A stretch of 64,000 nucleotides of DNA. Source: Octopus vulgaris (lineage: Eukaryota). Position 1 is the first letter of the stretch, and the number at the start of each line of letters is the position of its first letter. Below are positions 14,148 to 53,075 of the stretch, one piece after another. The notes beneath the pieces were generated by a model, which had not been told where the DNA came from, did no database searches, and saw only the letters and a program-made list of their open reading frames with translations. A program made the position numbers and the translations under genes. Where the stretch lies: contig OX597817.1 of NCBI GenBank assembly GCA_951406725.2, positions 97,836,001 through 97,900,000 on the forward strand, written 5' to 3'.

Positions 14148-15236
14148 CCGTATATACTTGATCTCATGTAAAAGTTCAACCCGCTATTTTGGGCCAAAAA
14201 GCAAAATTTTCCATAGACCCTGTATAAAAGTCAACCCTAGTATTTGTGAACAGGACAACATTTGTGGGCCAAGGTACTATATCATTTTGTACATAGAAAT
14301 AACACTGTTACAAAATTGTGTGGCTACCTTGTTGTAGCCTGATCTTTAGGTGGAATGCTTGGTGCTTATAATGGAATGCTCAGTGCTTATAATAGTGAGC
14401 ACTACACATCTGTTGATGGGTGCTACATTACTAAAATGTATGTACAGGATATGCTGCGAGCCTGCATACATCTTGAAGCACAATAAACACATGCACCATA
14501 CACTTGTTGTTTACATGGTGAGAAACATGTTTCACAGACAGCACTATTGGCAAACACTGGCAAATGCCACTGTTTGAATTTGTACAAAGGCATGACTTTG
14601 GTAAGCCTAAAAGCTTTCAATTAATCACTAGATCAGTGGTTCCCTCATAACCTTTACATTTTCCTCATCTCCAAATACAATAAGCACATGCATCATACAC
14701 TCATCTGTTTACATGGTGAAAAACGTGTTTCACAGACAGCACTATCGGTGAACAACAGCAAGCACCACTGTATGAATTCGTACAGAGACATGACTTCCGT
14801 GAACTTAAAAACATTTAGTTAATCGCTAGATCAGTGGTTACCAAACTTTTTTTGCCACAGAATCCTTCGACATTATTTTTTAAAATGTGGAACCCCTAAT
14901 AACTTTCAGGGAACCCTGGGGTTTTGCGGAACACATTTTGAGAATCCCTGCTCTAGATTAACAACTCTACACCACATTATGAACATTTACTGGTAACTGC
15001 ACATAAGAGCTAGGACACGTGTTTTGATGTATAGAATTGGTAATATTACTGTAATTCATTGTGTTGTTGTTTTTATTCACTTAGAGATCAGTTGGGCTTT
15101 TGCTGCTGATATGGTACTTCAGATTCTAGCTTGAATTTCAGTCCCTCAAAAGTAGTATCCATGTAATAGTCGATCTCATAAATTTGACCTGAAAAAATGG
15201 TCTAAAGCATTCTACTTTTACATAAGTATATATGGT
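14148..15236. mobile_element. Non-autonomous pogo/Tigger-like element with an internal ~200-bp tandem duplication
   Basis: Termini are CCGTATATACTT...ATGTAAAAGT and ACTTTTACATAAGTATATATGG. The segment 14470-14640 is repeated at 14675-14840. Confidence 0.6.
14832..14950. mobile_element. hAT (Charlie-like) MITE
   Basis: TIRs CAGTGGTTACCAAA / TTTGAGAATCCCTG; 8-bp TSD CGCTAGAT / CTCTAGAT. Confidence 0.8.
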
Positions 15237-16519: not shown

Positions 16520-18117
16520 CTGGCCAGACGAGGCTGGCAAACAGCCACGATCGGATGGTGCTTTCATGTGCCACCGGCACTGGTATCACAGCTACAATTT
16601 CCATTGATGTTGATCGATTTTGATTTTGATTTTCACTTGCCTCAACAGGTCTTCACAAGTAGAGTTTTGTGTCCCAAGAAGGAAAGGTATGCATAAGTGG
16701 ACTTAGGCCACGGGTTATGGTCTCACTTGTCCTGCCGGGTCTTCTCATGCACAGCATACTTCCAAAGGTCTCGGTCTCTGGTCATTTCCTCGGTGAGACC
16801 TAAAGTTCGAAGGTTGTGCTTGTCCCAGGTTTTCCTGGGTCTACCTCTTCCACAGGTTCCCTCAACCGCCAGGGTGTGGCACTTTTTCACACAACTATCT
16901 TCATCCATTCTCGCCACATGCTCATACCAGCACAAACGTCTCTCTTGCACACCACAACTGATGCTTCTCAGGTCCAACTTTTCTCTCAAGGTACTTACAC
17001 TCTGTTGAGTATGAACACTGACATTACACATCCCTTGGAGCATACTGGCTTCATTTCTTGCGAGCTTACACATATCCTCAGCAGTCACGGCCCATGTTTC
17101 ACTGCCATGTAGCATGGCTGTTTGTACACATGCGTCATACAGTCTGCTTTTTACTCTGAGCGAGAGGCCTTTTGTCCCTAGCAGAGGTAAGAGCTCTCTG
17201 AACTTTGCCCAGGCTATTCTTACTCTAGCAGTTACACTTTCAGCACACCCGCCCCCGCTACTGACTTGGTCACCTAGGTAACAGAAGCTATCAACTATTT
17301 CTAGTTTTTCTCCCTGGAATGTGGCAGAAGTTGGTCTCTGCGCATTTTCAGTGTTGATTGCTCCTGAGCATCTGCCACATACAAAAACTATTTTCCTAGT
17401 TAGCCTTCCTTTGACATTGCTGCACCTCTTATGTGTCCTTAGCTTACACTTGGTGCATCTTATAGAGTTTCTACCTACGCCTTTTCTACAGATCGAGCAG
17501 GGCCATCTACCTGAAGGCTTTTGTGACTTGTCTACCTTCCTACTTATTAGGACTTTGGTTTTAGCTAGGTTGACTCTAAGGCCCTTCAATTCTAATCCTT
17601 GCTTCCACACCTGAAACTTCTCCTCCAGTTCTGATAGTGAATCAGCAATTAGAGCAAGGTCCTCAGCGTAGAGGAGCTCCCAGGAGCATCCTGTCTTGAA
17701 TTCCTCCGTTATTGCCTGGAGGACTATGATAAATAGGAGGGGGCTGAGGACTGAACCTTGGTGGACCCCTACCTCTACCCGGAATTGTTCACTGTACTCG
17801 TTGCCAACCCTCACCTTACTAGCACTGTCCCTGTACATGGCTTGCACAGCTCTCACTAACCATTCATCTATCCCTAGTTTCCTCATTGACCACAAGATAA
17901 GGGATCGGGGGACCCTGTCGAAGGCTTTCTCCATGTCAACGAAAGCCAGGTACAGGGGCTTATCTTTGGCTAGATATTTCTCCTGCAGCTGTTTTACCAG
18001 GAATATGGCATCAGTGGTACTTTTCCCTGGCACGAACCCAAACTGCATCTCATCTAAACTAACTCTCTCTCTAATTAGTTGGGCTATGGCCCTCTCCGTA
18101 ACCTTCATTACCTTCAT
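16520..18117 (-). mobile_element. 5'-truncated RTE LINE with a 464-aa RT/PHD/C-terminal ORF (16723-18117)
   Basis: QFGFVPGKSTTDAIF, AFVDMEKAFD, GVHQGSVLSPLLF and FCYLG are present. The catalytic YADD is changed to YAED and there is no endonuclease. Confidence 0.95.
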
Positions 18118-19399
18118 TATATTGTCAACTCCCCTTTTTATATGTATATTAAACTATTCGGTGTACTTTTTCATCAGATACATACAACTGTCTAGTTGAA
18201 GATAATGGAGAATGCTCAAGGAAGCAAGGCTACTGGAAAGAATTTAAAAAATGGGAGTGAAGATTGGAATTAGTAAAGAACCAATGGTGTGCCTTATTCA
18301 CTAATCACCTTGTGAGATAGGGTGTAGTTTCATTTCATTATCGGCATACTCAAATTATTGTAGTGGCTGCAGTAATGACTGCATCTCATTAATGGGCAGT
18401 CAGCACACCAAAAGCTGGGATATATATTGCTAAGGATAGATGAGTCATAAACGCTCATATCAGGTGGTGGGAGGAGGAACAGGTAAGAGGGAAAAAAGAA
18501 TAAAGACAAAGTAGTTGAGAGTAGTTACTTATATGTACACACATGGATACACTAGTCCATGCACACACACACACACACAAAGAGAAACTACATAGACACT
18601 CTTACAAAGCATATCACTATAAACCTATAATTATGGGCACACATAAACATGTAAACAAATATACATATACATATATATATGTGTGTGTGTGTGTGTGTAT
18701 ACATACAGCTATATACATATGGCCCAATATACAAATATGTATATTTATGCCCATCACATGCAGGAAAAATAAAAGAATAAAATATACTGTAGATATAGGT
18801 AAATCTCTATGGACGAATACAATTGTACAATATTAAAATAAGGGTATAATAACAAGTGTATATGTAAACACACACAAACATACAGACATATGCTGGAAGT
18901 AAATTAAAGGTAACAACAGAAATGAGAAATTATGCAACAAAAAATCTAAAATGAGATAGTTATAAACGCATAAATTCATATGCACAATATGTATATGTAA
19001 GGTTGTTGGATATGTTGAAAAGCAAAACATGAAAACATATAGGTAGTAGGAGTTTGAAAGTAACATGGCAATCAGGTGCAAAAGATGTGGGGAGCATACT
19101 AATCTCAGCCAGATCCCAACATTGCTACTTGGTAATTTAGAATCCATTTAATATACCAGTTAATAAAATTAGATGAAAAGTCTACCAGGAAACATAATTA
19201 TGCTAAATAATGTTAAATAGATAAAGTACAGAACTTGAGGCAAGGTTCCTTATAAAATTTTCAGTAACTACAAGTAAATAGGAATTGACAGAAATTGCTT
19301 CACAAGAATAAGGGTTTTTAGCAGATGAAAGTGTTATGTAATCTGTGCATACACAGGTTATCTAGAGAAGGAATGTGAATTTTTTTAACAACAAATGAG

Positions 19400-28224: not shown

Positions 28225-28249
28225 GATTTTATTTCCTGTTATTTTACAG
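28225..28249 (+). promoter_or_regulatory. Candidate splice acceptor of the zinc-finger coding exon
   Basis: Polypyrimidine tract TTTTATTTCCTGTTATTTTACAG. Alternative CAGs end at 28328 and 28375. The in-frame TAA at 28401 supports ATG 28419 as the start. Confidence 0.55.
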
Positions 28250-28418
28250 ATTTTCCTGCAAATTTGACCATTCCTGTTGTACTTTACCTGAGTTGGACTC
28301 ATTCTGATTGGATGTTATACTTTACAGAATTATACATGGCACCAATAGTGAAGTGTCCATGTATGTTACTTGCAGCTCAGGATTTTGTTGCAAGCTTAAC
28401 TAAGCTTCTTCTGATAAG

Positions 28419-31400
28419 ATGATGTTCTCCAGTTCCAAAGAGAACCAGCTGCCATTATCTGGTAATAATGGTTCGCTTAATGTCAATCAGATATCTGACA
28501 AGGGATGTTACAGCCTTAGGTCACGTCACAATTCACAAAATATTTTCAAATGTGAGATCTGTAGCAAAATCTTTGACAGCAATTCTTCCTTGGAACAACA
28601 CATGTTTTCTGTTCATCATTCTACAAATGGAGTGTTTTTATGTGAATTCTGTAGTACCAATTTTTCACAAAAGAGCAGCCTCATGCAACACAGGTGTACC
28701 CATTTAACTAATACTACTTCACAAGCCATATTAGACACAGGTTTTCCTCAAAAGATTTATCAATCACTGACAGATAATTCTAATATAAATACTGTAAAGA
28801 TGTCACAGAATTTTACCTGCGAATTCTGTCACAAAACATTTAAAACAAACTCAGCTTTGCTGATTCATAACCGCAGTCACACTGGTGAATCTCCTTATTC
28901 CTGTGAGTTTTGTGGCAAGAACTTTCGGCAGACTGCACACTTAGATGTCCATATGAGAATTCATACTGGAGAAACACCATTTAAATGTAATTATTGTAAT
29001 AAATCTTTTAACCAGAAGAACAACAGAAACAGACATGAGTTAATCCACTTAAACGGTAACATAGAACAAAATCCTACTATATCTGGAATAAACTTTGACC
29101 CAAACGCAGCCACATCCCCAATTCATACTTCCAGTGTTCCTAACACATCTCAGAGTTTCACTGTTTCTGATGTGAAAGAATCTTCTTTGACACCTTCCAT
29201 TTCAACAGATCAAAGCAGATCTAATGATTTGATTGTACAACGGACACCACAAACATCTCATATATGTCACTTATGCAACAAAACTCTTAACAGCAAATCA
29301 GCATTACAAGTGCACTACAGAACACATACAGGAGAAAGCCCATATATCTGTCATATCTGTAACCAAAGGTTCAAACAGAGTGCCCATTTGGATGCCCATT
29401 TAAGGGTGCATAGTAAGGAAACTCCTTTTAAGTGTCAATACTGTGATAAAGGATTCTCACAGAAAGGCAACAAAAATCGCCATGAGCGTACTCACTTTTT
29501 AAACAAAGAAGGAGATACTGGTAAAGTAAATACACTACTGCCATCAACCAGAGAAGTATGTCACACAAACAGTATTATTGGTTGTGAATTTGAAACTTTG
29601 CTTGATCATGAGGGAGTCAGAATTAATATAAACTACAAACAGTTTGTTAATATTGATGCAGACAATGTTTATAGTGATAAAAGTAATCTAGCTATTTGTG
29701 AGTTTTGCCAGAGCCCCATCAAAGATTGTACTTGTGCAGCTACTCACTCTTCCTCATTCCGGCAAAATACAGAACCATATCCTTTTCAGAAGACTACAGA
29801 ACAGTTTGTTTTAAGTGATAACACCAGTAGAGAGGCTGTAGAGAATCAAACAGCGGAGGCGACAAATATTCAGAAGTATAACAACTCCAGAAGTAAACTC
29901 TCAGCCCAAACAATATGTAATGACAACACATGCATGTCAGCTTCAAGTGAATTGTTAAATTCCAATACTTCATCAAGGAACCATTCATCATTTATTTGCA
30001 AAATGTGCACAAAAGAGTTTGTCACTAACATTGAACTTCAAAGGCACATGCAGTGTCATAAGGGAGTTACTGTTTGTGAATTCTGTCATAAAGATTTTAA
30101 AAGCAGCTCATCATTAGCTGTCCACAGACGGGTTCATACTGGAGAGATGCCTTATAAATGTGACTACTGTAACAAAAGCTTTAAACAAGTACCTCATCTT
30201 GATGTCCATATGAGAACTCATACAGGAGAAATGCCATTTCAGTGCCTCTATTGTGACAAAAAATTCAGTCAGAAATGCAACAGAAACCGGCATATGAATA
30301 CACATATGAATGAAGCTGCTACTGAATCAAAGGATAAGTGTGACAAGAATGAGGTATATTCTGGCAACCAGGTTGAAAAACTTCAGTCTCTAACTGAATG
30401 TACATGTGGGAATGAATTTTCAGAACCTAATAGTTTCATAACACATATATTATCACATGACAATCTACCTGATTTATTAAGTCAAAGCAATAGTCATAAT
30501 AATCACACACCTGAAATAAACTGCAATAATTCTGGGACAGCTAGTATTAAAGACAGTCAGTGTAGAGTTTGTAATGAGACATTTACAGATCAGGCTGGCT
30601 TAGACCAACATATAGCTTCATCTCATAGAAAAAACTCATTCCCTGTCTCCAAAGATAATTGTGAAACTGAAGCAAATAAAATACAGGAGAGACCTTTGGG
30701 CTTAATACCAGGTGAAATCCCTTACATATCTTCATCAGCTAATAATTCTCTTGTAGTTTTGAATAACAATATGAGTACATTAGGCCATTTAGGAAATGAA
30801 AGTTCCAAAAGTTTCCAACCAAACAATTGCAACATTGAAGTTCAGTCAAGGTCACAATCTGGGGAATTGCTTTATGAAGCTGGTTACATAGAAAATTCTC
30901 AAAACAAAGAATCCAAAACAAATAATTGGATTGAAGCAGCAAGCTTAAAAACCAGTGAGCATAGTATTTCAACAAATTTTGTTTCCAATGATATGAGCTA
31001 TACCCCTGTTGAAAGACTTGGAACTCATGACTGTCAGATCTGTAATTCAAAGTTTACTAATTATACAAGTTTTATGGATCACCAAAACTCTCATAATAAC
31101 TGTATAGAGATGATGAGAAAATCTCAATCAGCTTCTGATGAATTTATTCATAATAATAGCAACTTCTCTGACAGAGGTGTTTTCAAATGTGAGCTTTGTG
31201 GGAAGTTTTTTCCTGACATTGCGAGCCTCCATTATCATCAACAGGTCAAACATTCACAAGAGGTTATTGCCAGGAATAATTTTAATCAACCTAGATCTTG
31301 TCATCAACTTGAGAATGGTGATTTTGAAGAAAGAGACAACTCCTTCACATCTAGTCCCAGCAACAAAGGACATTTAATAACAGGAAGCACCAACATAACT

Positions 31401-34400
31401 TCAAGTAATAAAGAAGATTTGGCAGGTATTAACAACAAACTTTTCAGTTGTAAAACATGTAACTTCCATTTTAATTCCCAGCAAGACTTGATTAAACATA
31501 AATTGTGTCACACTGTTTCAACTAATCATTCAGTAAAGTGTAATCAGGATATGACTGCAGCTTTAACTCCATCAAATACATGTGCTGCAGTGGCTGACCA
31601 AATGAATAAATCAGATTCTCCTTTGGTTTCCACCAATTCAAACATATGTGAATTTTGTAAGAAAGATTTCCGTAACCACTCTGCCTTGGTGATCCATCGA
31701 CGAATACACACAGGAGAAATGCCATTCCAATGTGAATACTGTCATCGTGGTTTTAGGCAAGTTGCTCACCTTGATGTACATTTACGTATACACACTGGGG
31801 AGACACCTTATAAATGTGCATTTTGTAGTAAGAAGTTCAGTCAAAACTGCAACCGAATAAGACACCAGAAGATTCACCTGCAACCACAAAATTTAGATGG
31901 TAGTTATGAGCAGTCAGCTAGCCACCAGGCTGGAGATCATATATACAATTGTGAATTTTGTATTTCAAAGTTCAGCAACTATGAAGAGTTTTTAGATCAT
32001 CTTAACTGCCATAACACTCCTTGCTTACAAGATGGACAACCAGAAGAATATAAGAAAAAACGAAAATTGCAGTCTGTTTCACAGAGTTTCTATTCTGAAA
32101 ATGGAACTCCTGAAGATTGGAACTGTTGTGAGAGAGGTTTGACTGGATCTAATAATAAACGTAAACAGTGTAATCCACATTCAGTAAATGCTGGTGAGTG
32201 TAACCTACAGATGGGAAGTAATTGTGACAAGACCCCTTTAAATGGGTGTAGTGTATCAGATTGTGAAAATAATGGTGGTTACTTTGTGAAAAACTGCCAG
32301 AATAGTCTGAAAGTTATTGGGAATAATGAATGTGAGTTATGTAGTGTACAGTTTGTGAATAAAGATGAACTTAATGTACACCAAGTGTCTCATCATATGG
32401 ACCAGCCTTCAACAATGTTTAGCAATAGAAATTCTACCCACTGTCAGTCCAGCATGAATTTATTGAAAGATTCTGCTGGTCAAGGCCCATCTGAGAAGAG
32501 TTGTGAGTTTTGCCAGAAGACATTCAATAGTACTTCAGCTCTCATTACACATCGACGTGTACATACAGGAGAGACTCCTTACAAGTGTAGTTTTTGTCAA
32601 AAAAGCTTTAAACAAGCAGCACACAGAGATGTTCATATGAGAATACATACGGGTGAGACACCATACAAGTGCCAGTATTGTGACAGAAGTTTTTCTCAGA
32701 ACAACAACAGACTTCGGCATGAAAAAACTCATCAGTTAGACAACAATACTACTACACAATCCAATGAAAATTCTCCAAGGGCTGAGCTCCAGAATGACAG
32801 CAATGGGGCAACTGGTTCATCAGCTGAGCAAAATGGTGCATTATGTTTTACTTGTCCAGTATGTGGAGCACTGTTTGAAAATGGTTTGGACCTCACTGAT
32901 CACCAAACAATTTGTTTCGCAGCTAATGATAAACTTGCACATAATGATGTAGATGTACCAAATTGTTCTGTAAGTCTAGTATTAGAAACAGATTCTTTCC
33001 CTAATGATGACTTGCAGCACATACCAAGTTTATCTTCAGACAATAACTACAGTCTTAAAGAAGCAGACAAGTCTAGTTACTCAGATAAAAATGTAAGTCA
33101 ACCAAGTGAAATATTTTTCAGTTGTCATTCTTGTGGAATTAAATTCAGAACTGAGTCTGTTTTAAATAAACATCAGAAGTTGTGTAAAGGTTCTTCAAGA
33201 CTGGTTCCTGTAGCAACAGATGATATTGGCCTAATTTCTACTGTCATGTCTGAAGATGGATCTTCACATTTTACATTAAAAAATAATGTTGAACCATCAA
33301 AAGCTAAGCAACATGATGCAACAGTAGATCTGTTTCCATGCAACATTTGTGGTGAAGAATTTACTCTTGCCATACATCTTAATTGTCACATGGCTACACA
33401 TTCAGAGCAAAAAGAATTTACTGATCATGTTACTAAGCAAAATAAACCAAGAGCACTTTCAATAAACCTTGAAGAACCTTCTTTGCATATGACTGTTGAA
33501 GAATTTGGGAATTGTTCTGAAGATGAAGGTCTTGCTACTCCTCAACCTGACTGTAGTGGTCATCTGGAGAATGGGGAAGACAGTGACAATGTTGCAGAGA
33601 GGGAAGACAATGATGAAGAGCAAAAAGACAGTTCAAAACAAACTCACTTTAAGTATAAGAAGAATTCACAAATATTAGATTTTGAAAATTTGATAAAAAA
33701 AGAAATTCTTCTTGAAGATTATGAAAACCCTTTACATCAACTAAAAAAAACTTTTATTACAAAAGACAGTTCTAAAGACACAGAAAATCCTTGTGGTATT
33801 GATACTGCTATGGAAACAACATCAACTTGCTTGCCTGATGCAGATCGAACAGGATACTTTTGTCATCAATGTAACATAGAGTTTACTAATGAAGAAAAAC
33901 TACATCAACACAGGATATCTGTTCATGAGGAAGCTAAAGAAAATTATGAAGTTGTGACTGGTGCAGAGCTATTATCTACACTATGTAATCGGGGGGATGG
34001 AAACCTGCTTCTTGACCAACATATATGTGAATTTTGTGAGAAAGGATTCAACAGTAGCTCTGCACTGCATGTTCATCGTAGAATTCACACTGGGGAATCT
34101 CCCTACAAATGCCACCTCTGCAATCGGAGATTTAAACAGAATATTCATCTCAATGTCCATTTGCGAACGCATACAGGAGAAACTCCTTATCACTGTCAAT
34201 TTTGTGACAAAAAATTTACACAAAACAGTAACCAAATTCGTCATCAACGTATGCATCTAGCTGATATTACCACAGTGGATAGTTCAGCTGTTGTGGACAA
34301 TATTACTCCATCTGAAAATAATGTGTCACTTGAACCAAACTCTGATTCTAGAAACAGAGATTCTTCAGATGACCATGAGCTTATGACTAATAGTGAACAG

Positions 34401-36761
34401 CAATGGAAAGATAAAAAGCCTTTATATTATAACCAACTTTTTGAAAAGGAAAGGAAATCATCTGTTCTTAACATCATTCCTCTAGAGTATCATCCCCCAA
34501 ATGAGCCTAAAATAGAAGTCAATAATAGTGACTTGACTGGTTCCATTTACATGGGAGACTCTCAGCAAATGAGTGTTTTAAAAGAGGAAATAGATGCTGG
34601 TGACGATAAGAAGCTACCTGTGAATACTAACAACAAACAACCAGCTGACAAGGAAGGCTCCCAAAGTGAAGTGAACTTGTCCTTCCCTAAAGACTCTAAG
34701 TACTACTTAAGAAATTCACACTTTAGATGTGATTTCTGCTCACGACAGTTTCGTAGTAAATCTGCACTTATCATACATCGGCGAGTACACACAGGAGAGA
34801 AACCTTACCAATGTACATACTGCTTGAAAAGCTTCAAGCAAGTTGCTCACTTAGAAACTCATTCTAGAATACACACAGGGGAAACTCCATTCAAATGTAA
34901 CTACTGTCGACGATCTTTCAGTCAGAAAAGTAATTGTGATCGTCATCATCGTATTCATGTGGCTTGGAAAAAGAGGATGAAAGCTAGAGCTAAAGCTGCT
35001 GCTAAAACAGTTCACCTGTGTACCATCTGTGATGGTCGGTTTGCTAATGCCAGTGCTTTAAGCAAGCATAAATGTTCTAAGGTAATTTCACTTGAAGAAG
35101 CAGGAGGCAACACTGATAATGTGCTTTCAAGCATACCTTACTCGTGCAATATATGTGGTAAAAACTACATTAACAAAGGATATTTTGAAAGACATAAGCA
35201 GTCACACACTTTAAACACCACTTCAGAGAAAGATGCAACATCTGTTACTGAAAAGGCATTTTATTTATGTGAGATTTGCCAGCAAAATTTTACAGATAAA
35301 ACACAATACACTGAACATGTATTTCAGCATATCTCCGAGACACCATGTGATCAAGAAGCAAGTTCATACACCTCTACTGACGATGTTCCTGTTGACCATA
35401 TTAGAGAAGTCTGCTATTTATGTGAGCAGTGTAAAAAAGAATTTTATAATAAAGAAGATTTCTATTCTCACTCTTGCTCCTCTACTTTTGACTCTGGCAA
35501 TAAGGAAAGATATGAAGAACATGACTCTAAAAGTTTTGAGAACTCCTGTAATGATGACGAAATATTTACCACAACTCTACTTGATCAAGACCTTTCACGA
35601 GAAACTGAAGTTTCTGGGTTTTCAGAACAGAATGGAAATAACAGTGGACTGAGTGTATGTGAGTTCTGCAACAAGACATTCAAAAGTTTATCATCTTTGC
35701 TTATTCATCGACGTGTACACACTGGGGAGACACCATTTAAGTGTCCTTATTGTAAACGACAATTTAAACAGATTGCACACCTTGATGTCCATTTAAGAAC
35801 ACACACTGGAGAAACTCCTTTTAAATGCCAGTTTTGTGACAAATCATTCACACAGAACAGTAACAAGAATAGGCATGAGAAAGTTCACCTGAGCAGTGAA
35901 ACTGCAGCACAACTTGAACTCAGTAGTAGTCAAATATTTTCTAAAAATTCTGTTAATTCAGCAGTAACTACTTCTGAAAAACCATGTCAAAGTTACTGCT
36001 GTGACATTTGTTTTGCTATGTTTTCTACAGAAAATGACCTAAATGAACACACCCAAACACATCAAGATACAAGCTATGATCTTGGGACTACACTTTTAGA
36101 TTTGAATCAAAATTCAAATAAAAGGCACCATCAAGGTGAAAATGCTGAATCTAACCAAAACCAAGTCCCACATGGAAAATCTAAGAGACTGAGTGACACA
36201 AAGAAAAGATGTATTATGGAAGTCAAAGGATTTCTTGCTAATGAACAAGAGTTAAAGCCAGAAGTTTTTAATCAAAATAGACTTGACGACCAAAGTATGA
36301 CATATGATAACTTTGGTGAAAATATTTCTTGCCACCAGTGTGAAATGTGTGACAAAATATTTCAAACAAATGATGCTCTAGTAGAACACAAATTCTCTGA
36401 GCATATAACATCAGCTAGTAACCAAGACATTGATGATTGCAATTCAAAAATAATAGGCAGCCAGAAGTCTGTCTCTGCTAACTTTGACAATGGTTTGCAA
36501 AAACATGTATGCGAATACTGTAACAAAGATTGCAAGAGTTTTTCTTCACTGCTTACACACAGACGAGTACACACGGGGGAAACTCCATATAAATGTAGCT
36601 ACTGTGAACGTAGCTTCAAACAATCTGCTCACTTAGATGTTCACATGAGGACTCATACAGGGGAAACACCTTATAAATGTAAGTTCTGTGACAAAGCATT
36701 CTCTCAGAATAGTAACAAGAATCGTCATGAGAGATTACACCTCATCCAAACAGCTACTTGA
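28419..36761 (+). CDS. 2780-aa multi-cluster C2H2 zinc-finger protein (about 47 fingers: nine three-finger modules plus about 20 isolated fingers)
   Basis: Uninterrupted 8.3-kb ORF. The 77-aa triplets start at 28818, 29265, 30075, 31647, 32502, 34026, 34728, 35658 and 36510. NLS-like KKKRK and S/N/Q/E-rich spacers are present. No KRAB, BTB, SET or ZAD domain recognised. Confidence 0.97.
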   Translation: MMFSSSKENQLPLSGNNGSLNVNQISDKGCYSLRSRHNSQNIFKCEICSKIFDSNSSLEQHMFSVHHSTNGVFLCEFCSTNFSQKSSLMQHRCTHLTNTTSQAILDTGFPQKIYQSLTDNSNINTVKMSQNFTCEFCHKTFKTNSALLIHNRSHTGESPYSCEFCGKNFRQTAHLDVHMRIHTGETPFKCNYCNKSFNQKNNRNRHELIHLNGNIEQNPTISGINFDPNAATSPIHTSSVPNTSQSFTVSDVKESSLTPSISTDQSRSNDLIVQRTPQTSHICHLCNKTLNSKSALQVHYRTHTGESPYICHICNQRFKQSAHLDAHLRVHSKETPFKCQYCDKGFSQKGNKNRHERTHFLNKEGDTGKVNTLLPSTREVCHTNSIIGCEFETLLDHEGVRININYKQFVNIDADNVYSDKSNLAICEFCQSPIKDCTCAATHSSSFRQNTEPYPFQKTTEQFVLSDNTSREAVENQTAEATNIQKYNNSRSKLSAQTICNDNTCMSASSELLNSNTSSRNHSSFICKMCTKEFVTNIELQRHMQCHKGVTVCEFCHKDFKSSSSLAVHRRVHTGEMPYKCDYCNKSFKQVPHLDVHMRTHTGEMPFQCLYCDKKFSQKCNRNRHMNTHMNEAATESKDKCDKNEVYSGNQVEKLQSLTECTCGNEFSEPNSFITHILSHDNLPDLLSQSNSHNNHTPEINCNNSGTASIKDSQCRVCNETFTDQAGLDQHIASSHRKNSFPVSKDNCETEANKIQERPLGLIPGEIPYISSSANNSLVVLNNNMSTLGHLGNESSKSFQPNNCNIEVQSRSQSGELLYEAGYIENSQNKESKTNNWIEAASLKTSEHSISTNFVSNDMSYTPVERLGTHDCQICNSKFTNYTSFMDHQNSHNNCIEMMRKSQSASDEFIHNNSNFSDRGVFKCELCGKFFPDIASLHYHQQVKHSQEVIARNNFNQPRSCHQLENGDFEERDNSFTSSPSNKGHLITGSTNITSSNKEDLAGINNKLFSCKTCNFHFNSQQDLIKHKLCHTVSTNHSVKCNQDMTAALTPSNTCAAVADQMNKSDSPLVSTNSNICEFCKKDFRNHSALVIHRRIHTGEMPFQCEYCHRGFRQVAHLDVHLRIHTGETPYKCAFCSKKFSQNCNRIRHQKIHLQPQNLDGSYEQSASHQAGDHIYNCEFCISKFSNYEEFLDHLNCHNTPCLQDGQPEEYKKKRKLQSVSQSFYSENGTPEDWNCCERGLTGSNNKRKQCNPHSVNAGECNLQMGSNCDKTPLNGCSVSDCENNGGYFVKNCQNSLKVIGNNECELCSVQFVNKDELNVHQVSHHMDQPSTMFSNRNSTHCQSSMNLLKDSAGQGPSEKSCEFCQKTFNSTSALITHRRVHTGETPYKCSFCQKSFKQAAHRDVHMRIHTGETPYKCQYCDRSFSQNNNRLRHEKTHQLDNNTTTQSNENSPRAELQNDSNGATGSSAEQNGALCFTCPVCGALFENGLDLTDHQTICFAANDKLAHNDVDVPNCSVSLVLETDSFPNDDLQHIPSLSSDNNYSLKEADKSSYSDKNVSQPSEIFFSCHSCGIKFRTESVLNKHQKLCKGSSRLVPVATDDIGLISTVMSEDGSSHFTLKNNVEPSKAKQHDATVDLFPCNICGEEFTLAIHLNCHMATHSEQKEFTDHVTKQNKPRALSINLEEPSLHMTVEEFGNCSEDEGLATPQPDCSGHLENGEDSDNVAEREDNDEEQKDSSKQTHFKYKKNSQILDFENLIKKEILLEDYENPLHQLKKTFITKDSSKDTENPCGIDTAMETTSTCLPDADRTGYFCHQCNIEFTNEEKLHQHRISVHEEAKENYEVVTGAELLSTLCNRGDGNLLLDQHICEFCEKGFNSSSALHVHRRIHTGESPYKCHLCNRRFKQNIHLNVHLRTHTGETPYHCQFCDKKFTQNSNQIRHQRMHLADITTVDSSAVVDNITPSENNVSLEPNSDSRNRDSSDDHELMTNSEQQWKDKKPLYYNQLFEKERKSSVLNIIPLEYHPPNEPKIEVNNSDLTGSIYMGDSQQMSVLKEEIDAGDDKKLPVNTNNKQPADKEGSQSEVNLSFPKDSKYYLRNSHFRCDFCSRQFRSKSALIIHRRVHTGEKPYQCTYCLKSFKQVAHLETHSRIHTGETPFKCNYCRRSFSQKSNCDRHHRIHVAWKKRMKARAKAAAKTVHLCTICDGRFANASALSKHKCSKVISLEEAGGNTDNVLSSIPYSCNICGKNYINKGYFERHKQSHTLNTTSEKDATSVTEKAFYLCEICQQNFTDKTQYTEHVFQHISETPCDQEASSYTSTDDVPVDHIREVCYLCEQCKKEFYNKEDFYSHSCSSTFDSGNKERYEEHDSKSFENSCNDDEIFTTTLLDQDLSRETEVSGFSEQNGNNSGLSVCEFCNKTFKSLSSLLIHRRVHTGETPFKCPYCKRQFKQIAHLDVHLRTHTGETPFKCQFCDKSFTQNSNKNRHEKVHLSSETAAQLELSSSQIFSKNSVNSAVTTSEKPCQSYCCDICFAMFSTENDLNEHTQTHQDTSYDLGTTLLDLNQNSNKRHHQGENAESNQNQVPHGKSKRLSDTKKRCIMEVKGFLANEQELKPEVFNQNRLDDQSMTYDNFGENISCHQCEMCDKIFQTNDALVEHKFSEHITSASNQDIDDCNSKIIGSQKSVSANFDNGLQKHVCEYCNKDCKSFSSLLTHRRVHTGETPYKCSYCERSFKQSAHLDVHMRTHTGETPYKCKFCDKAFSQNSNKNRHERLHLIQTAT

Positions 36762-37077: not shown

Positions 37078-37200
37078 AATAAAAGGCTTTATTAAGGAAT
37101 CATATCAAATTATTTTCTAATTTTATTACAATTCTACATCCTCAAATGCAAAATTAATATAACATTAAGATGTCAAACGGCATTTTTGTTTATAAATAAA
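37078..37200 (+). terminator. Candidate polyadenylation signals of the zinc-finger gene
   Basis: AATAAA at 37078-37083 and 37195-37200, about 320 and 435 nt after the stop codon. Confidence 0.55.
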
Positions 37201-42372: not shown

Positions 42373-45300
42373 TCATCATCATCGTTTAACATCCGTTTTC
42401 CGCCCCAGCACGGGTTGGACAGTTCGACCGGGGTCTGGGAAGCCAGGGGTTGCACCAGGCTCCAGGCTGATCTGACAGAGTTTCTACAGCTGGATGCCCT
42501 TCCTAACGCCAACCACTCCGCGAGTGTAGTGGGTGCTTTTTACGTGCCACTTGCACAGGTGCCAGGGGGGTCCGGCATCGGCCACGATCGGTTGGAGCTT
42601 TTAACGTGCCACCGGCACGGAAGCCAGCCAAGGCGGTGCTGGCAACAGCCACATTCGGATGGTGCTTTTTTATGTGCCACTGGCACTGAAGCCAGTCGAG
42701 GCAGCTCTGGCATCGGCCACGTTCGGACGGTGCTTTTTATGTGCCATCGGCACAGAAGCCAGTCAGGGCGTTGCTGGCATCGGCCACGTTCGGATGGTGC
42801 TTTTTATGTGCTACCGGCACAGAAGCCAGTCGAGGCGGCGCTGGCAACGGCCACGTACGGATGGTGCTTTTTATGTGCCACCGGCACAGGTATCACAACT
42901 ACTATTTCCATTGATATTTATTTCGATGTTTATGTTGATGTACTTGACTCAACAGGTCTCCTCAAGCACAGTGGGACGTTCTGGGATCCAGGGTACTTTG
43001 AATGGGCAGGGGCTATGCGGAACTGGTGCAGGAAGCAGCCCGGGTCTTTGCAGTCACAGCATATCTCCAGAGATCTCGGTCCTTCACCATTGCCTCAGTG
43101 AGGCCCAACGCTCTGAGGTCATGCTTGACTACCTCATCCCATGTCTTCCTGGTACCTTCAACTGTTTGGGAGTGGCACTTCTTCACACATCTCTCCTCAT
43201 CCATCCGCAGTACATGACCATACCATCGCAAGCGTCGCTCTTGCACACCACATCTGATGCTTCTTATGTCCAGCATTTCTCTCAGGGTGCTTACACTCTG
43301 TCATGCGTGCACACTGACATTACACATCCAGCGGATCATGCTAGCTTAATTTCTTTCAAGTCTACGCATGTCCTCTGCAGTCACAGCCCATGTTTCACTA
43401 CCGTGAAGCATGCCAGTTCGCACACATGCATCATACAATCTACCTTTCACTCTGAGCGAGAGACCCTTTGTCGCCAGTAGGGGTAGGAGCTTTCTGAACT
43501 TTGCCCAGGCTATTCGTATTCTAGTGGTGATACTCTCTGACTAACTTGGTCACCCAGGTAGTGGAAACTATCAACTACTTATAGTTTCTCCCCCTGGAGT
43601 GTGATGGAATCTGTTTTCTGAGTGTCTGTGGTGTCTATTGTCCCTGTGCATCTGCCGCACATGAGAGCTATCTTATCAGTTAATTTCCCTTTGATGTTGC
43701 TGCACCTCTTATGCATCCATAGCTTACATTGGGTGCATCTTATGGAGTTTCTACCTACACCTTTCCTACAGATTGAGCAGGGCCACCTGCCTGAGGGGGT
43801 GTGTGCTGAGTTCGCCTTTCTGCTTACTATAACTTTGGTCTTTGCTACATTTACTCTAAGGCCCTTTGATTCTAACCCTTGCTTCCACACCCGAAATTTC
43901 TTTTCTAGTTCCGGTAGTGATTCTGCTATGAGAGCCAGGTCATCAACATAGTGGAGCTCCCAGGGGCATCCTGTTTTGAATTCCTCTGTTATTGCCTGGA
44001 GGACTATGATGAATAAAAGGGGACTGAGGGCTGAGCCTTGGTGTACACCTACTTCTACCCGGAATTCTTCACTATATTCGTTGCCAATCCTAACCTTGCT
44101 GACAGCCTCTCTGTATAGAGCCTGTACAGCCCTTATTAGCCAATCGTCAATCTCCAGTTTCTGCATCGACCACCAGATAAGGGATCGGGGAACCCTGTCA
44201 AAGGCTTTCTCCAAGTCCACAAAAGCTATGTAGAGGGGTTTATCTTTAGCTAGGTACTTCTCCTGCAGTTGTCGGACCAGGAGTATAGCATCAGTGGTGC
44301 TTCTACCCGGCACAAAACCGAACTGCTTCTCATCTAAGCAAATTCTCCCCCTAATGAGATGGGTTATGACCCTCTCTGTGACCTTCATCTCCTGATCCTG
44401 TAGTTATTTCTATCTAGAGCATCACCCTTACCCTTGTAGCAGTTGACTATGGTGCTGCTACGCCAGTCATTGGGTATGACTCCATTATGAACTACCTGGC
44501 TTACAATGCGGGTGACTAGGCCATAGCCCACATAGCCAGCTGTTTTAAGCATCTCAGCAGTGATTCCTGGTTTCATGTCCTTAATTGCCTTAACTACAAG
44601 GGAGCTGTCTATTCGGATAGCTAGTCTCTCTACTGGGTCAACATTTGGCTGGCTCTCCTCCTCCCATTCATTCTCCTCATTCAGCAGTCTTTCGTAATGG
44701 CTTCACCAAGCCTCTTTCTTTTCACCAACATTAAAAGCAAGTGCCCCATCATCCATGCGGACACATTTCTCTCCTGCAACATCACTGTTTTCTCTCACAC
44801 ACTGTCTGGCAATCCGAAATACCTCAGCTCCTTGGTCCTCACGTCGCTGGACATTGGCAAACTTCTTCTTTTCTGCTACATCTTTGGCTATGTATACCTG
44901 CCGCCCAGCCTCCCTTTTGGCTACCTGGTACAGTTCCCTGCTACCCCCATCCCTCCAGGCTTTCCAGGCCTGTCTCTTTGCACTAATGGCTTTGTCTACT
45001 ACACTATTCCACCACCACGTAACTCTAGGTCTGGAAGGGACTTTGCACCATCCACAGACTTGGTCTGTGGCACTCAGCAAGCTGTCCCGTAGGAATTCCC
45101 AGCTACCTTCTATGTCCGACGTCTGAAGCTCCTCCTCCCTCTCATCAAATTTCTTGATGAGGATGTCCCTAAATCTCTGACCATGTGAAGGGTTCTTTAG
45201 CTTCCAAATCCTTCTTTTCTGGATTGGTTTGTTTCTTGGAGTCCTTCTGGCCTCAAGCTTAAAGTCACTTAAAGCCTATGCTGAGGGATACATTCTTCAC

Positions 45301-47300
45301 CCGGGAGGGTCTTTATATTTAAGAGCGACCCTGCATTCCGCTGTCTTGTGAGGATGAAGTCTATTTGTCTAGCGGAGTCTCCTGACTGATAGGTTATAAG
45401 GTGGCAGTCAGGCTTCCTGAAGTTAGTGTTGCAGATTACAAGGTTACATGCATCACAGAATTCCAGTAATCTAGTTCCCTTATCATTTCTGGTGCCAATA
45501 CCATGGCCACCGTGTACCCCAGTGAAGATACCCAATTCCCGCCCAACATGCCCATTAAAGTCTCCACCCACAAAGATGAGGTCCTTGCCACTAGTCTTTG
45601 AGGTAGCCTGTAGAAGGGTATCATAAAAGTGGTCCTTCTGATCATTTGGTAGTCCCGCTTGTGGGGCATAGGCGGAGATAATCATAGCTGTGCCACTCTG
45701 TAGGGCTAACCTGAGCTTAAGCACTCTATCGCAAACCCTGACAATCTCTATGATCTTATCCACCCATTTCTCCGCAAGGAGAATGCCTACACCCCCTACA
45801 CCATCCATGTTACCTTGCCAGAAGACTTTATACCTATGTGCCTTGCCTGTGAGGACCCTAGCTGAAGCACCTCTCCATCTTACCTCTTGTATGCAGCATG
45901 CATCAACCCGTCTTCTCTCAAGCATCTCTACAATCTCACTAGACCTGCCTTTCAATGTACCAACATTGACAGTGCCAACTCTGAAAACTGGGAAGGAGAT
46001 GTGGGGAGGAGGGGAGCAATTCAGCGCCTGAAAAGAAGAGGAGGGTTGTTGTGGTGGTGATCGTTTTTTAGGCATTTTTCATCTGATCTCTCTTCCAACC
46101 TGACAACATTCAAGCATTTAGGCATGTTAAGGTTGTGGCCCCTGTCGTAGGTAGGAGCTGGTGTTAGCAGCGTTGTAAGCATAAACACTAAGGTCATTGA
46201 TGATGTAGATGTAAGCTCTGTGGCAAAAATACTGAAATTCTAGGTGTTAGTAGCATTCTAAGCAAACATTATGGTCACTGAGTAACGTGGTTTAAGCAGC
46301 GTAGCAGAAACATGGATATTCTAGTGTTGGGTTGGGGGGCAGGTTCCAGCTGAGAAAAAATTTTTGGTTGCATTGCGGCGGGGAAGGGTTCCAGCAGAGA
46401 GAAGAGAGGGAGAGAGAGAGAAAGTGGGGGGTGCAGGTAATATAGGGGAGCACCAGTGGGGAGGGTTGGAGTAAGGAGAAACGATGACAGGTAGGGTTGG
46501 TGGCAGGTTCTAGACAGAATAAAACGTAGGATATCACGAATGGGGGAGGGGACTGGGAGGAGATAGCCGGTTGAGGCAGTGACAAATTTCAAAACAGGAG
46601 GAAACGTAAGATAACTGGTTAAGTGGGACGGTTGATGAGCTGCGGCGCTAGCTGCTTCTGTCTTGGGGGGGAGAGGCAGGGGTAATAAATAGTGCAAAAG
46701 CATATTGAGGAGGAGGGGTAGGAGGAATAGACACACGTAATGGTGGTGGGAGAGGGGATATCTGGTGTAGATGGTGTAAACAGAATATTCTCCAGTATTG
46801 GTGGTGGGCGTGGGAAAGGGCGGGCGCACCGCGAATGGCGAAGATTTGGATTGGGGACAGTAGTGAGAAGAATTAAGCAATTGAGGACAGTAATGGCGAA
46901 GATTTTGATTAGGGACGGTAAATGAACGAATTAACTTCGTACCGGGGGGGGGGGGGGTTTAAAAGAATTAAAGGATTATATTTCGTGGAGAAAAGAACAA
47001 GCAGATTAGCGAATAGATTCAAACATTTAAGCATTAGCGGCAAATGTATGTATGCAGTACGGGGATCGGAAGAAATGAAATGAGAATTCTTAGCTTGCTT
47101 TGGACATCGCTGTGGTCGAAGAAAGAATGAGTAGAAGAGGAGCACGAGGTAAAATTTAAATAGACTGACCGGAAGAAGTGAGTTGGAAAGACAGAAGTTT
47201 TGATTGAGAACAGTAATGGCGAAGATTTTGATTGGGGACGGTAAACGAACGAATTAACTTCATACCGGGGGGGGGAGGGGTTAAAAAAATTAAAGGATTA
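42373..47300 (-). mobile_element. Nearly full-length RTE LINE (5' UTR, APE, RT, PHD-like finger, 3' UTR, (GAT)n tail), disabled
   Basis: APE at 45269-46075 (GTVNVGTL, CCIQEVRW, GGDFNGHVG, IDFIL) and RT at 43579-44388 (YVDD). Several frameshifts and stops. Confidence 0.96.
42530..42890. repeat. ~67-bp tandem repeat (about 5 units) in the RTE 3' UTR
   Basis: CGGATGGTGCTTTTTATGTGCCACCGGCAC... recurs near 42657, 42724, 42791 and 42858. Confidence 0.9.
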
Positions 47301-51389: not shown

Positions 51390-52472
51390 CAGTGTACCCC
51401 TCACTAATTTGCGGTTTGGCATTCGTGAAACTAATAATTGCAGAAACCACTGCCTATTTGTGGAATTGTAAATATCGTCTGCAATTTTTTATGGCTTTTT
51501 CCATGGCAATATATATTTTTTCACACTTTCTAAGGCTAAATTATTAATAACAATATACCATATTTGCCAGCTTACTAGATGCCCCTTTGCAGTTGAAGCT
51601 CCCTCTGATTAGAATAGCCGCATATCACATCGCTTGATTGTATCTCTTATTCCTGCTTTCAATCAAAGCTTGCTAATTAATATAGTGACATCTATCTATA
51701 TTTCACACATACACACTCTCTCTTGCTGTATTTGTCTCTCAACAAAAGCCTTTTGTTATAGTGAAAAAATATATATATATACAGTGTATCACATCAATAT
51801 TACTTGGACTATTGATGACAGATCAAAGATATATACAGTGATCCCTCGTTTATTGCGGTAGATTGGTTCCAAGACCAGCCACGATAACTGAATTTCCGCG
51901 AAGTAGGGACACCATATCTACAGTATTTATTTAACGTGTATTTGGACTGTTAAAATCATCCCTGTACTGTTAACAACCCACCCATTACAATAGTCTATTA
52001 ATAACAAGGGCAACTGTTAAGCAATAACACTTTAGATTTATAAAAAATAAAGATTCTTACTGTACTCAACACGAAAGAAGTTGATGTAAAATTTGAATGC
52101 GAATAGCGATGAATTTGCTGCACAGTAAAAATGCTGATGATGAAGTTGACGGCAGTGCCCTTTCCTGGGACACCTCTTCCACTTCTGAATGTGCAACCAT
52201 AGTAGTAGCAGCAGGAACTGGCTCTTTTTTGCAAGGCTGCAAAAGCATTGTGAAAGGAAGTTGCTGGTACTGCTTTTTCCATTCAAAGAGCATCTTGTAG
52301 GGATTCATGACTTCCTTGACCTTGTTGCAAAATTGCACAGAACGAATCATATCGTCGCCCCATTCCTGTGCCCCCTCTTTCAATTCTTTAGCTAGGTTGC
52401 AGAGCTTGGCTAGCCGTTCCAAAGTCAAGCCAGTTTAGTCGACAACTTCCGTTTTTTGCTGCATTTCTTCTT

Positions 52473-52503
<31 letters not shown>

Positions 52504-53075
52504 TTCTTATTCTTCTTCTTCTTCTTCTTCTTCTTCTTCTTCTTCTTCTTCTTCTTCTTCTTCTTCTTCTTCTTCTTCTTCTTCTCCTCCTCCTCCTCCT
52601 CCTCCTCCTCCTCTTTGCTGGCCGACTTCATCAAGTCTTCAAGGTCTGTGTCGGTTAACGGCTGGAAGTGGCAGTCTAATAATGCATCGATGTCTCCCAT
52701 GGTCATGTCTGCAAAGCTTTCTGTACTGCAGAGTGTTGGATTTCGGCAGGTGTAAGTCCCTTGTCGTCATAAATAATCTCGGGCCACAAATTTTTGAAGC
52801 TCGTGTTAATGGTGGTAGGCCTCATTTCTTGCAATGCCTTCTGCATATTTTGGAGGCACGTAGCAATTGTGTACTGCTGCCAGCATGCCTTCAAGTTAAA
52901 ATTTTCATTTTCGTCTTCTTGGGCAGCATCCATAGCAGCAACCAGGTTTGCCAGAACATATTTTTATGGATTTAATGAAAAATTTTAGGTGTTCATATAT
53001 ATATATATATTTTAAAAATCCACAAAGTCATGAATCTACGATAGCTGAACCACAAAGTAGCAACGAGACTGAATG
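51390..53075 (-). mobile_element. Tigger/pogo relic(s) with a transposase C-terminus on the minus strand
   Basis: TA-CAGTG termini at 51390 and 51836. Motifs NFNLKACWQQYTI, FKNLWPE, LLDCHFQPLTDTDL and KKQYQQLPFTML. Confidence 0.8.
52465..52612. repeat. (TTC)n followed by (TCC)n microsatellite
   Basis: About 40 TTC units then about 9 TCC units, inside the poly-Glu region of the Tigger relic. Confidence 0.98.

Follow-up and report, generated by a model that had tools for sequence, protein, structure and literature searches.

The 64,000-nucleotide stretch of Octopus vulgaris DNA analyzed here (contig OX597817.1, positions 97,836,001 to 97,900,000; hereafter the window, numbered from its first letter) encodes a large C2H2 zinc-finger protein in which one putative three-finger DNA-reading head is repeated nine times. 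A stop-free frame on the + strand runs from 28404 to 36761 (2,785 amino acids), and its first usable methionine, at 28419, is also the start of the public gene models. The initial annotation had begun the element at 28818, which is correct for the repeated heads; the gene itself starts about 400 bases earlier. The 2,780-residue product falls in one protein cluster with O. sinensis LOC115211127, from which it differs at 6 residues, O. bimaculoides LOC106880551, and record P0006, and the named members are annotated as uncharacterized. Judged by sequence, it is the orthologue of these two named genes. The nine-module set is also carried by the three cluster members other than the O. vulgaris product, which come from separate sources. 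Pfam detects only zinc-finger families in the protein.

A C2H2 pattern count gave 44 fingers, made up of nine linked triplets (modules, with fingers F1 to F3) and 17 others, which confirmed the nine 77-residue triplets reported initially. The spacers between successive modules measure 72, 193, 447, 208, 431, 157, 233, and 207 residues. Their lengths match the roughly 70 to 450 residues first given, but they are not strictly of the low complexity described; they are instead rich in S, N, T, E, and D and acidic, and overall Gln content is 5%. The coding frame and its modules are as follows.

28419..36761, + strand: uninterrupted open reading frame for the 2,780-residue C2H2 protein; the exact product is in a public protein collection
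28818..29048, + strand: module 1, helices TNSALLI / QTAHLDV / QKNNRNR, predicted Zif268-type three-finger fold (model)
29265..29495, + strand: module 2; F1 and the first linker are decayed in divergent orthologues
30075..30305, + strand: module 3; Pro at F2 +2, shared by both lineages
31647..31877, + strand: module 4, equal to module 5 of 11-module orthologues, whose module 4 has no Octopus counterpart
32502..32732, + strand: module 5, from C2H2 pattern and column alignment
34026..34256, + strand: module 6, from C2H2 pattern and column alignment
34728..34958, + strand: module 7; Thr at F2 +6, shared by both lineages
35658..35888, + strand: module 8, from C2H2 pattern and column alignment
36510..36740, + strand: module 9, C-terminal, from C2H2 pattern and column alignment

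Conservation among the modules is concentrated at the contact positions of the helices (−1, +2, +3, and +6). Across the nine copies, F1 reads TSSNSSSSS at −1, has S at +2 throughout (9/9), A or S at +3, and I, V, or T at +6. F2 has Q and H in all nine, with A and V each in seven of nine, and F3 has Q, N, and R in all nine with a variable +2 (N/G/C/S); the invariant residues are those listed in the initial annotation. Mean pairwise identity is 0.73 at contact positions, compared with 0.27 at helix positions +1 and +5 and 0.36 at variable framework positions, and so the early impression of near-invariant recognition residues in a diverged framework was well founded. Unrelated fingers give a baseline of 0.09–0.18 identity per contact position. 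Among 412 non-family proteins, a count that left out 10 family members and 35 cluster duplicates, neither the F2–F3 signature (6,815 linked finger pairs) nor the full one (5,047 linked triplets) occurred at all.

Orthologues were sought by word-index searches and an exhaustive profile search. Outside the Octopus cluster, among the best 41–150 matches listed (where long arrays outscore single modules, so that a relative with one module in other molluscs could be missed), the module fingerprint was found only in P0007, P0245, P0349, and P0416, a cluster-mate of P0349. Forty-one short matches all lacked it, and ESM Atlas returned generic C2H2 clusters only. P0007 (3,021 residues, 31% identity) and P0416 (3,017 residues) are divergent orthologues, and P0245 and P0349 are fragments. 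Their degree of divergence makes it likely that P0007 and P0416 come from another coleoid lineage, probably squid or cuttlefish. Both have 11 module positions against nine in Octopus, which is without modules 4 and 7 of the 11-module form. Because the lone fingers that trail module 4 remain and F2 of module 7 has an aligned counterpart in the finger at 33339, we suggest that two modules were lost in Octopus; the 33339 finger has the best F2 score of 12 lone fingers scored, yet this is weak, at about 0 bits. The absent modules fall within the two long Octopus spacers. In P0416, eight of the ten tethers are 194–249 residues long. Decay is seen in the divergent proteins as well, in module 5 of P0007 and in F1 of module 2 of both P0007 and P0416.

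The module duplications are, on sequence divergence, old. DNA identity between modules is only 57–73%, pS (the proportion of synonymous differences) is 0.69–1.04, and 156 of 439 four-fold sites are identical (0.355, against 0.356 expected from composition), so that synonymous sites are saturated. The modules nevertheless match by position across lineages. Positional partners in Octopus and P0416 are 71% identical, compared with 62% for other pairings, and none of 100,000 permutations reached the observed sum. The positional partner ranks first for six of the nine modules and second, sixth, and seventh for the rest; in the module tree, starred support unites the copies of modules 1, 2, 3, and 7 from the two lineages, the placement of the others being left open. 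There has therefore been no concerted evolution. The partners are identical at 93 of 108 contact positions but at only 133 of 270 variable-framework positions, and six residues (F1 S+2; F2 Q−1 and H+3; F3 Q−1, N+3, and R+6) do not vary in any of the 20 position-distinct modules of P0002 and P0416. Between P0002 and P0006, modules are 99% identical (686/693) and spacers 88%.

Saturation, positional matching, and contact conservation together imply that purifying selection was already acting on each module separately before the lineages diverged and has continued since, and that selection, not recent duplication, keeps the recognition residues. The initial annotation had suggested aligning the modules with their orthologues and had named recent duplication, visible as low synonymous divergence, as a possible refutation; the alignment places contact positions above the framework in conservation, and the synonymous sites are saturated. 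Its proposal that selection has preserved up to nine identical readers holds as regards selection, for which saturation and positional pairing speak, but not as regards identity. The heads are near-identical readers. Position-specific variants (F2 Pro+2 in module 3, F2 Thr+6 in module 7, and N or G at F3 +2) are kept across lineages, and for this reason the heads are not strictly the same.

A structure model of module 1 (predicted local distance difference test score, pLDDT, 92) aligned with the top DNA-bound three-finger structures at template modeling scores of 0.85–0.92. The single-sequence model of modules 6–8 had a pLDDT of 35 and left even the fingers unfolded, and it therefore provides no evidence of tether disorder. 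By model and pattern, each module resembles Zif268/EGR1 in fold and spacing, with three fingers and linkers of the canonical seven residues. EGR1 differs in having one unit per protein, a GC-rich site, and TGEKP-type linkers. In the octopus modules, the lysine of TGEKP is missing from 17 of 18 linkers; 14 of the 18 are of a TGE[S/T]P type (S/T-P), and 11 of these have the form S/T-P-x-K/R, which we take to be the cyclin-dependent kinase (CDK) consensus. Other C2H2 proteins have S/T-P and S/T-P-x-K/R in 269 and 168 of 5,022 linkers (5% and 3%), whereas P0416 has them in 13 and 7 of 21. Similar S/T-P linkers were also seen in a lepidopteran protein family. A further departure is K or R, not Leu, at F3 +4 in 17 of 20 modules, compared with 92 of 1,768 background terminal fingers.

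The putative target was estimated from published contacts. Helices with Q−1/N+3/R+6 have been used for GAA and those with Q−1/H+3 for AGA, TGA, or GGA (PMC3607563, Table 2), and small aliphatic residues at +6 contact thymine in a SALL4 structure (PMC9838217). Combining the two leads to a guessed site of GAA-(T/A)GA-NT, in which the part assigned to F1 would be the least certain.

The modules carry a net charge of +5 to +10, and seven of the eight inter-module spacers −3 to −16, the eighth reaching −40. Lone fingers are 44% identical to their counterparts in P0416, against 22% for spacers. Acidic residues occupy 19 of 68 lone-finger contact positions (background 9%), and because of this enrichment the lone fingers likely do not read DNA. 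Pattern scans found no HP1-, NuRD-, or CtBP-type motif in the Octopus protein. An AT-hook-like motif lies at residue 2011 of P0007 and residue 1985 of P0416; it is absent from the scanned Octopus proteins. The remaining features of the gene are given below.

28228..28249, + strand: likely splice acceptor (pyrimidine tract and AG), about 170 bases 5' of the start codon; sequence signal only
28551..28703, + strand: N-terminal pair of non-module fingers, alignable with divergent orthologues
29997-30059, + strand: extra finger, closely linked, 5' of module 3
32052..32066, + strand: candidate nuclear localization signal, basic stretch KKKRK; motif match only
33339..33401, + strand: lone finger that aligns with module 7 F2 of the 11-module orthologues, perhaps left over from a lost module
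35020..35480, + strand: block of lone or atypical fingers kept in divergent orthologues; likely protein-contact or structural
37078..37083, + strand: first candidate polyadenylation signal 3' of the stop; motif match only

The acceptor-like signal at 28249 suggests one or more upstream noncoding exons and, with the polyadenylation-like signal at 37078, would make the reading frame one large coding exon. None of the 19 sequencing runs listed as containing this stretch is recorded as RNA. O. sinensis isoform X2 and the O. bimaculoides model both lack the ten codons at 31260-31289, which may reflect a micro-intron call or a polymorphism. Six-frame translation of the rest of the window contained no other C2H2 fingers or linkers, and the remaining long frames with Pfam matches are retroelement pieces. 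Two on the − strand (16723-18153 and 43579-46078) have a reverse transcriptase followed by a C1/PHD-like finger, with an endonuclease upstream in the second, and an integrase core fragment at 6382-7023 (+ strand) is a retroelement remnant. The window also holds a 67-bp tandem repeat of 5.4 copies (42532-42889), a 198-bp near-duplication (14480-14839), and a (TTC)40(CTC)10 microsatellite (52465-52613).

The protein was compared with several named families. It is not of the KRAB, SCAN, BTB, SET, or ZAD type, as Pfam reports only zinc-finger families in P0001 and P0416; an effector domain could still lie on an unseen upstream exon, but the public models begin at the same methionine. The tandem-expanded C2H2 genes of cephalopods are contiguous arrays of diversified fingers with neighboring C2H2 genes; here, the triplets are dispersed and the window has no other C2H2 finger. 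In the HIVEP/Schnurri (ZAS) family, two double-finger clusters read kappaB-type sites, and Fan and Maniatis in 1990 reportedly found that widely separated finger clusters of PRDII-BF1/HIVEP1 recognize the same DNA sequence. Nine triplets with another fingerprint are not two separated double-finger clusters, and membership is rejected on that definition. ZNF236 is likewise a large protein, spanning invertebrates to vertebrates, with several dispersed clusters, some repeating a fingerprint. Orthology was rejected, since Octopus has a ZNF236-like protein of its own, P0052, whose helices differ and whose clusters hold two to four fingers, and the F2–F3 signature is absent from non-family proteins.

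SALL1-4 also carry several similar finger clusters dispersed along a long protein, and F1 had been called spalt/SALL-like at the outset. A PDB search with F1 of module 2 agreed, returning SALL4 chains at about 49 bits over one matched stretch, whereas the multi-finger PRDM9 matches at the top of the ranking scored about 21 bits per finger. The octopus F1 resembles SALL4 Znf6 in S+2 and in an aliphatic +6, I+6 (PMC9838217). SALL4 has three clusters and a Znf7 with T−1, G+2, N+3, and V+6 (PMC9838217), a SAL box finger that the octopus family lacks, having instead 9–11 triplets with Q/A/H/V and Q/x/N/R helices; the N-terminal NuRD-binding motif of the SALL type had no match in P0002, P0006, P0007, or P0416. 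ZNF512/ZNF512B also have spaced fingers, on disordered regions, and their chromatin aggregation depends on finger number (PMC11602157). They have four C2HC plus C2H2 pairs, oligomerize, and contain a NuRD motif (PMC11602157), whereas the octopus protein has canonical triplets and no such motif. Simple orthology to a characterized factor, another refutation raised initially, thus finds no backing in the features compared with SALL and ZNF236. Thousands of cephalopod C2H2 proteins are uncharacterized (PMC12513265). Literature searches turned up no paper on the octopus gene, nor any that names a class of such proteins; the gene identifiers themselves were not queried, and the main text of PMC12513265 does not mention them.

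The layout does recur in unrelated proteins. Among 307 non-family proteins of at least 1,000 residues and at least 12 fingers, ten have at least five dispersed clusters sharing a three-finger fingerprint: two of a second cephalopod-type family, five amphibian proteins, lungfish LOC122809357, P0254, and P0133. The set was chosen by likeness to the query and is redundant, and the count therefore shows recurrence, not frequency. Look-alikes from Argonauta, lungfish, and amphibians, with P0254 and P0030, carry 6–10 dispersed copies of one two- to five-finger head, with identity of 0.67–0.91 at contact positions versus 0.27–0.58 in the framework. Their fingerprints are unrelated to that of the octopus protein and their linkers are of the TGE[K/R]P form, with KRAB boxes as well in the amphibian proteins, and they score at most 96.5 bits on the module profile against 137–140 for the octopus-gene family. 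The octopus layout is thus unusual rather than unique; its copy number of one head is the highest among the proteins examined here.

The second cephalopod-type family comprises P0146 (Argonauta GAB1602416.1, named after LOC115211753), P0014, and P0267, with six or seven dispersed clusters of three to five fingers and one fingerprint unlike the octopus module (contact 0.68, framework 0.27). P0258, P0280, P0281, P0283, and P0317 are amphibian "ZNF585A-like" proteins of frogs and salamanders, with five or six dispersed copies of a four-finger head and internal KRAB boxes. Very large proteins with dispersed copies of a single head, each with its own fingerprint, include P0126 (lungfish LOC122809357; nine copies), P0254 (six or seven), and P0030 (ten, of a pair). 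Two candidates were rejected. P0237 has a similar F2, but its framework identity (0.72) exceeds that at contacts (0.62) and its score on the module profile is unremarkable; it seems to be the product of recent, unrelated duplication, as does P0181 (framework 0.98). P0354, P0358, P0277, and related lepidopteran proteins carry about 13 nearly identical R-K-E-H-L fingers in an unbroken array, joined by TGE[T/S]P linkers, presumably resembling Drosophila CLAMP.

We favor, with a probability of roughly 50%, the interpretation that this is an old octopus protein whose nine Zif268-type modules, on long acidic tethers, form an avidity-based multivalent reader of motif-dense DNA. From their conserved contact residues and positive charge, the modules very probably bind DNA and would probably share one core motif, a short purine-rich sequence predicted to be GAA-(T/A)GA-NT. 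The simultaneous use of several modules is somewhat favored, and cross-linking of distant DNA as the main job is doubtful. A lone 9-bp head would bind weakly and often, and nine on tethers would be retained for long only at clustered motifs. The heads could also draw nearby DNA segments together, local cross-linking then being a likely side effect. The acidic tethers and lone fingers would likely stay off DNA and recruit partners, and, more speculatively, the S/T-P linkers could permit cell-cycle release through phosphorylation. A possible precedent, by analogy, is ZNF512B, which on overexpression forms chromatin foci that scale with the number of fingers and which localizes to pericentric regions (PMC11602157).

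The repeated heads might also belong to a conventional transcription factor in which one or a few modules do most of the binding at promoters or enhancers, with the rest kept as back-ups or adapted to slightly different sites or protein partners, as in SALL4. We consider this rather unlikely, although several points favor it. Removal of the zinc-finger clusters ZFC1 and ZFC2 leaves the chromatin binding of SALL4 normal, and these two clusters serve in protein contacts (PMC9838217). Octopus has likely lost two modules, one is decaying in P0007, F1 of module 2 has decayed in both divergent orthologues, and position-specific variants are conserved. Mere back-ups would be expected to drift, however, yet modules of P0002 and P0006 are far more alike than their spacers, and the same six residues persist in all nine modules despite synonymous saturation. 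Recent internal duplication, gene conversion, or an assembly artefact without selection is scarcely credible, and nothing was found in its favor: the low inter-module DNA identity, the saturated synonymous sites, and the positional pairing across lineages refute recent duplication, and three other cluster members from separate sources have the same nine modules.

Binding of RNA, or of a repeated protein surface, in place of double-stranded DNA is very improbable. The atypical K/R at F3 +4 and the non-TGEKP linkers would suit it, some C2H2 arrays bind RNA, and a WT1–RNA entry (6wlh) is among the fold matches; conservation, however, falls on −1, +2, +3, and +6 and not on +1 and +5, at the residues used by the DNA code, and the linkers have the canonical length. 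Slightly less improbable is the strong form of the initial proposal, a dedicated satellite or microsatellite clustering factor that would gather tandem arrays from different chromosomes, (GAAT)n for example, into nuclear foci by binding them. Read as GAA-TGA-AT, the guessed site matches (GAAT)n = (TCAT)n, to which the mammalian finger protein ZFP24 binds (PMC6002757), and SALL4 reaches pericentric foci through an F1-like finger (PMC9838217). The AT-hook-like motif of the divergent orthologues would also agree, as would the tetranucleotide repeats that make up 21% of Sepiella cuttlefish microsatellites, their motif types being unspecified (PMC12564688). The window has no such tandem array, however, the Octopus protein lacks the recruitment motifs scanned for, and the fingerprint is fixed between lineages with spacers only 22% identical. 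Satellites turn over fast, and a long-fixed fingerprint fits poorly with a satellite target.

Several observations weigh against the multivalent reader that we favor. The guessed motif occurs 58 times in the window against 44 ± 7 in shuffles, 3 of 100 of which reach 58, and 47 times against 37 outside the reading frame; the enrichment is marginal and was counted as no support. There is one (GAAT)3 run and no (GAAA)3 run, and no target repeat was identified in the 64 kb. The SALL4 clusters dispensable for chromatin binding set a contrary example. The conserved position-specific variants fit specialized rather than interchangeable modules, the missing TGEKP lysine and the F3 +4 K/R may weaken canonical binding, and the AT-hook is missing in Octopus. 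The regular tether length may reflect selection on reach, but it may simply have been inherited from a duplicated unit of about 290 residues. That modules can decay or be lost, and that the layout recurs elsewhere, tells against the strong form of the proposal.

Three-dimensional chromatin organization and avidity are usually studied in factors that oligomerize or phase-separate, whereas the octopus protein builds valence into one chain. With valence naturally 9 or 11 and the fingerprint kept over deep divergence, valence is directly testable by removing heads. More tentatively, and in our view unlikely as a whole, the octopus gene may represent a recurrent class of polyvalent zinc-finger proteins that arose several times (in two cephalopod families, amphibians, lungfish, and others). 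With 5–11 heads on tethers of about 100–400 residues, these would act as single-chain chromatin cross-linkers that sense motif density and fold or cluster DNA without oligomerizing, here with spacers of about 200 residues and an S/T-P mitotic off-switch. The gene is a concrete, old candidate regulator among the uncharacterized cephalopod C2H2 proteins, and the similar layouts seen in amphibians, lungfish, and a second cephalopod family hint at a recurring design, one that could be studied in Xenopus.

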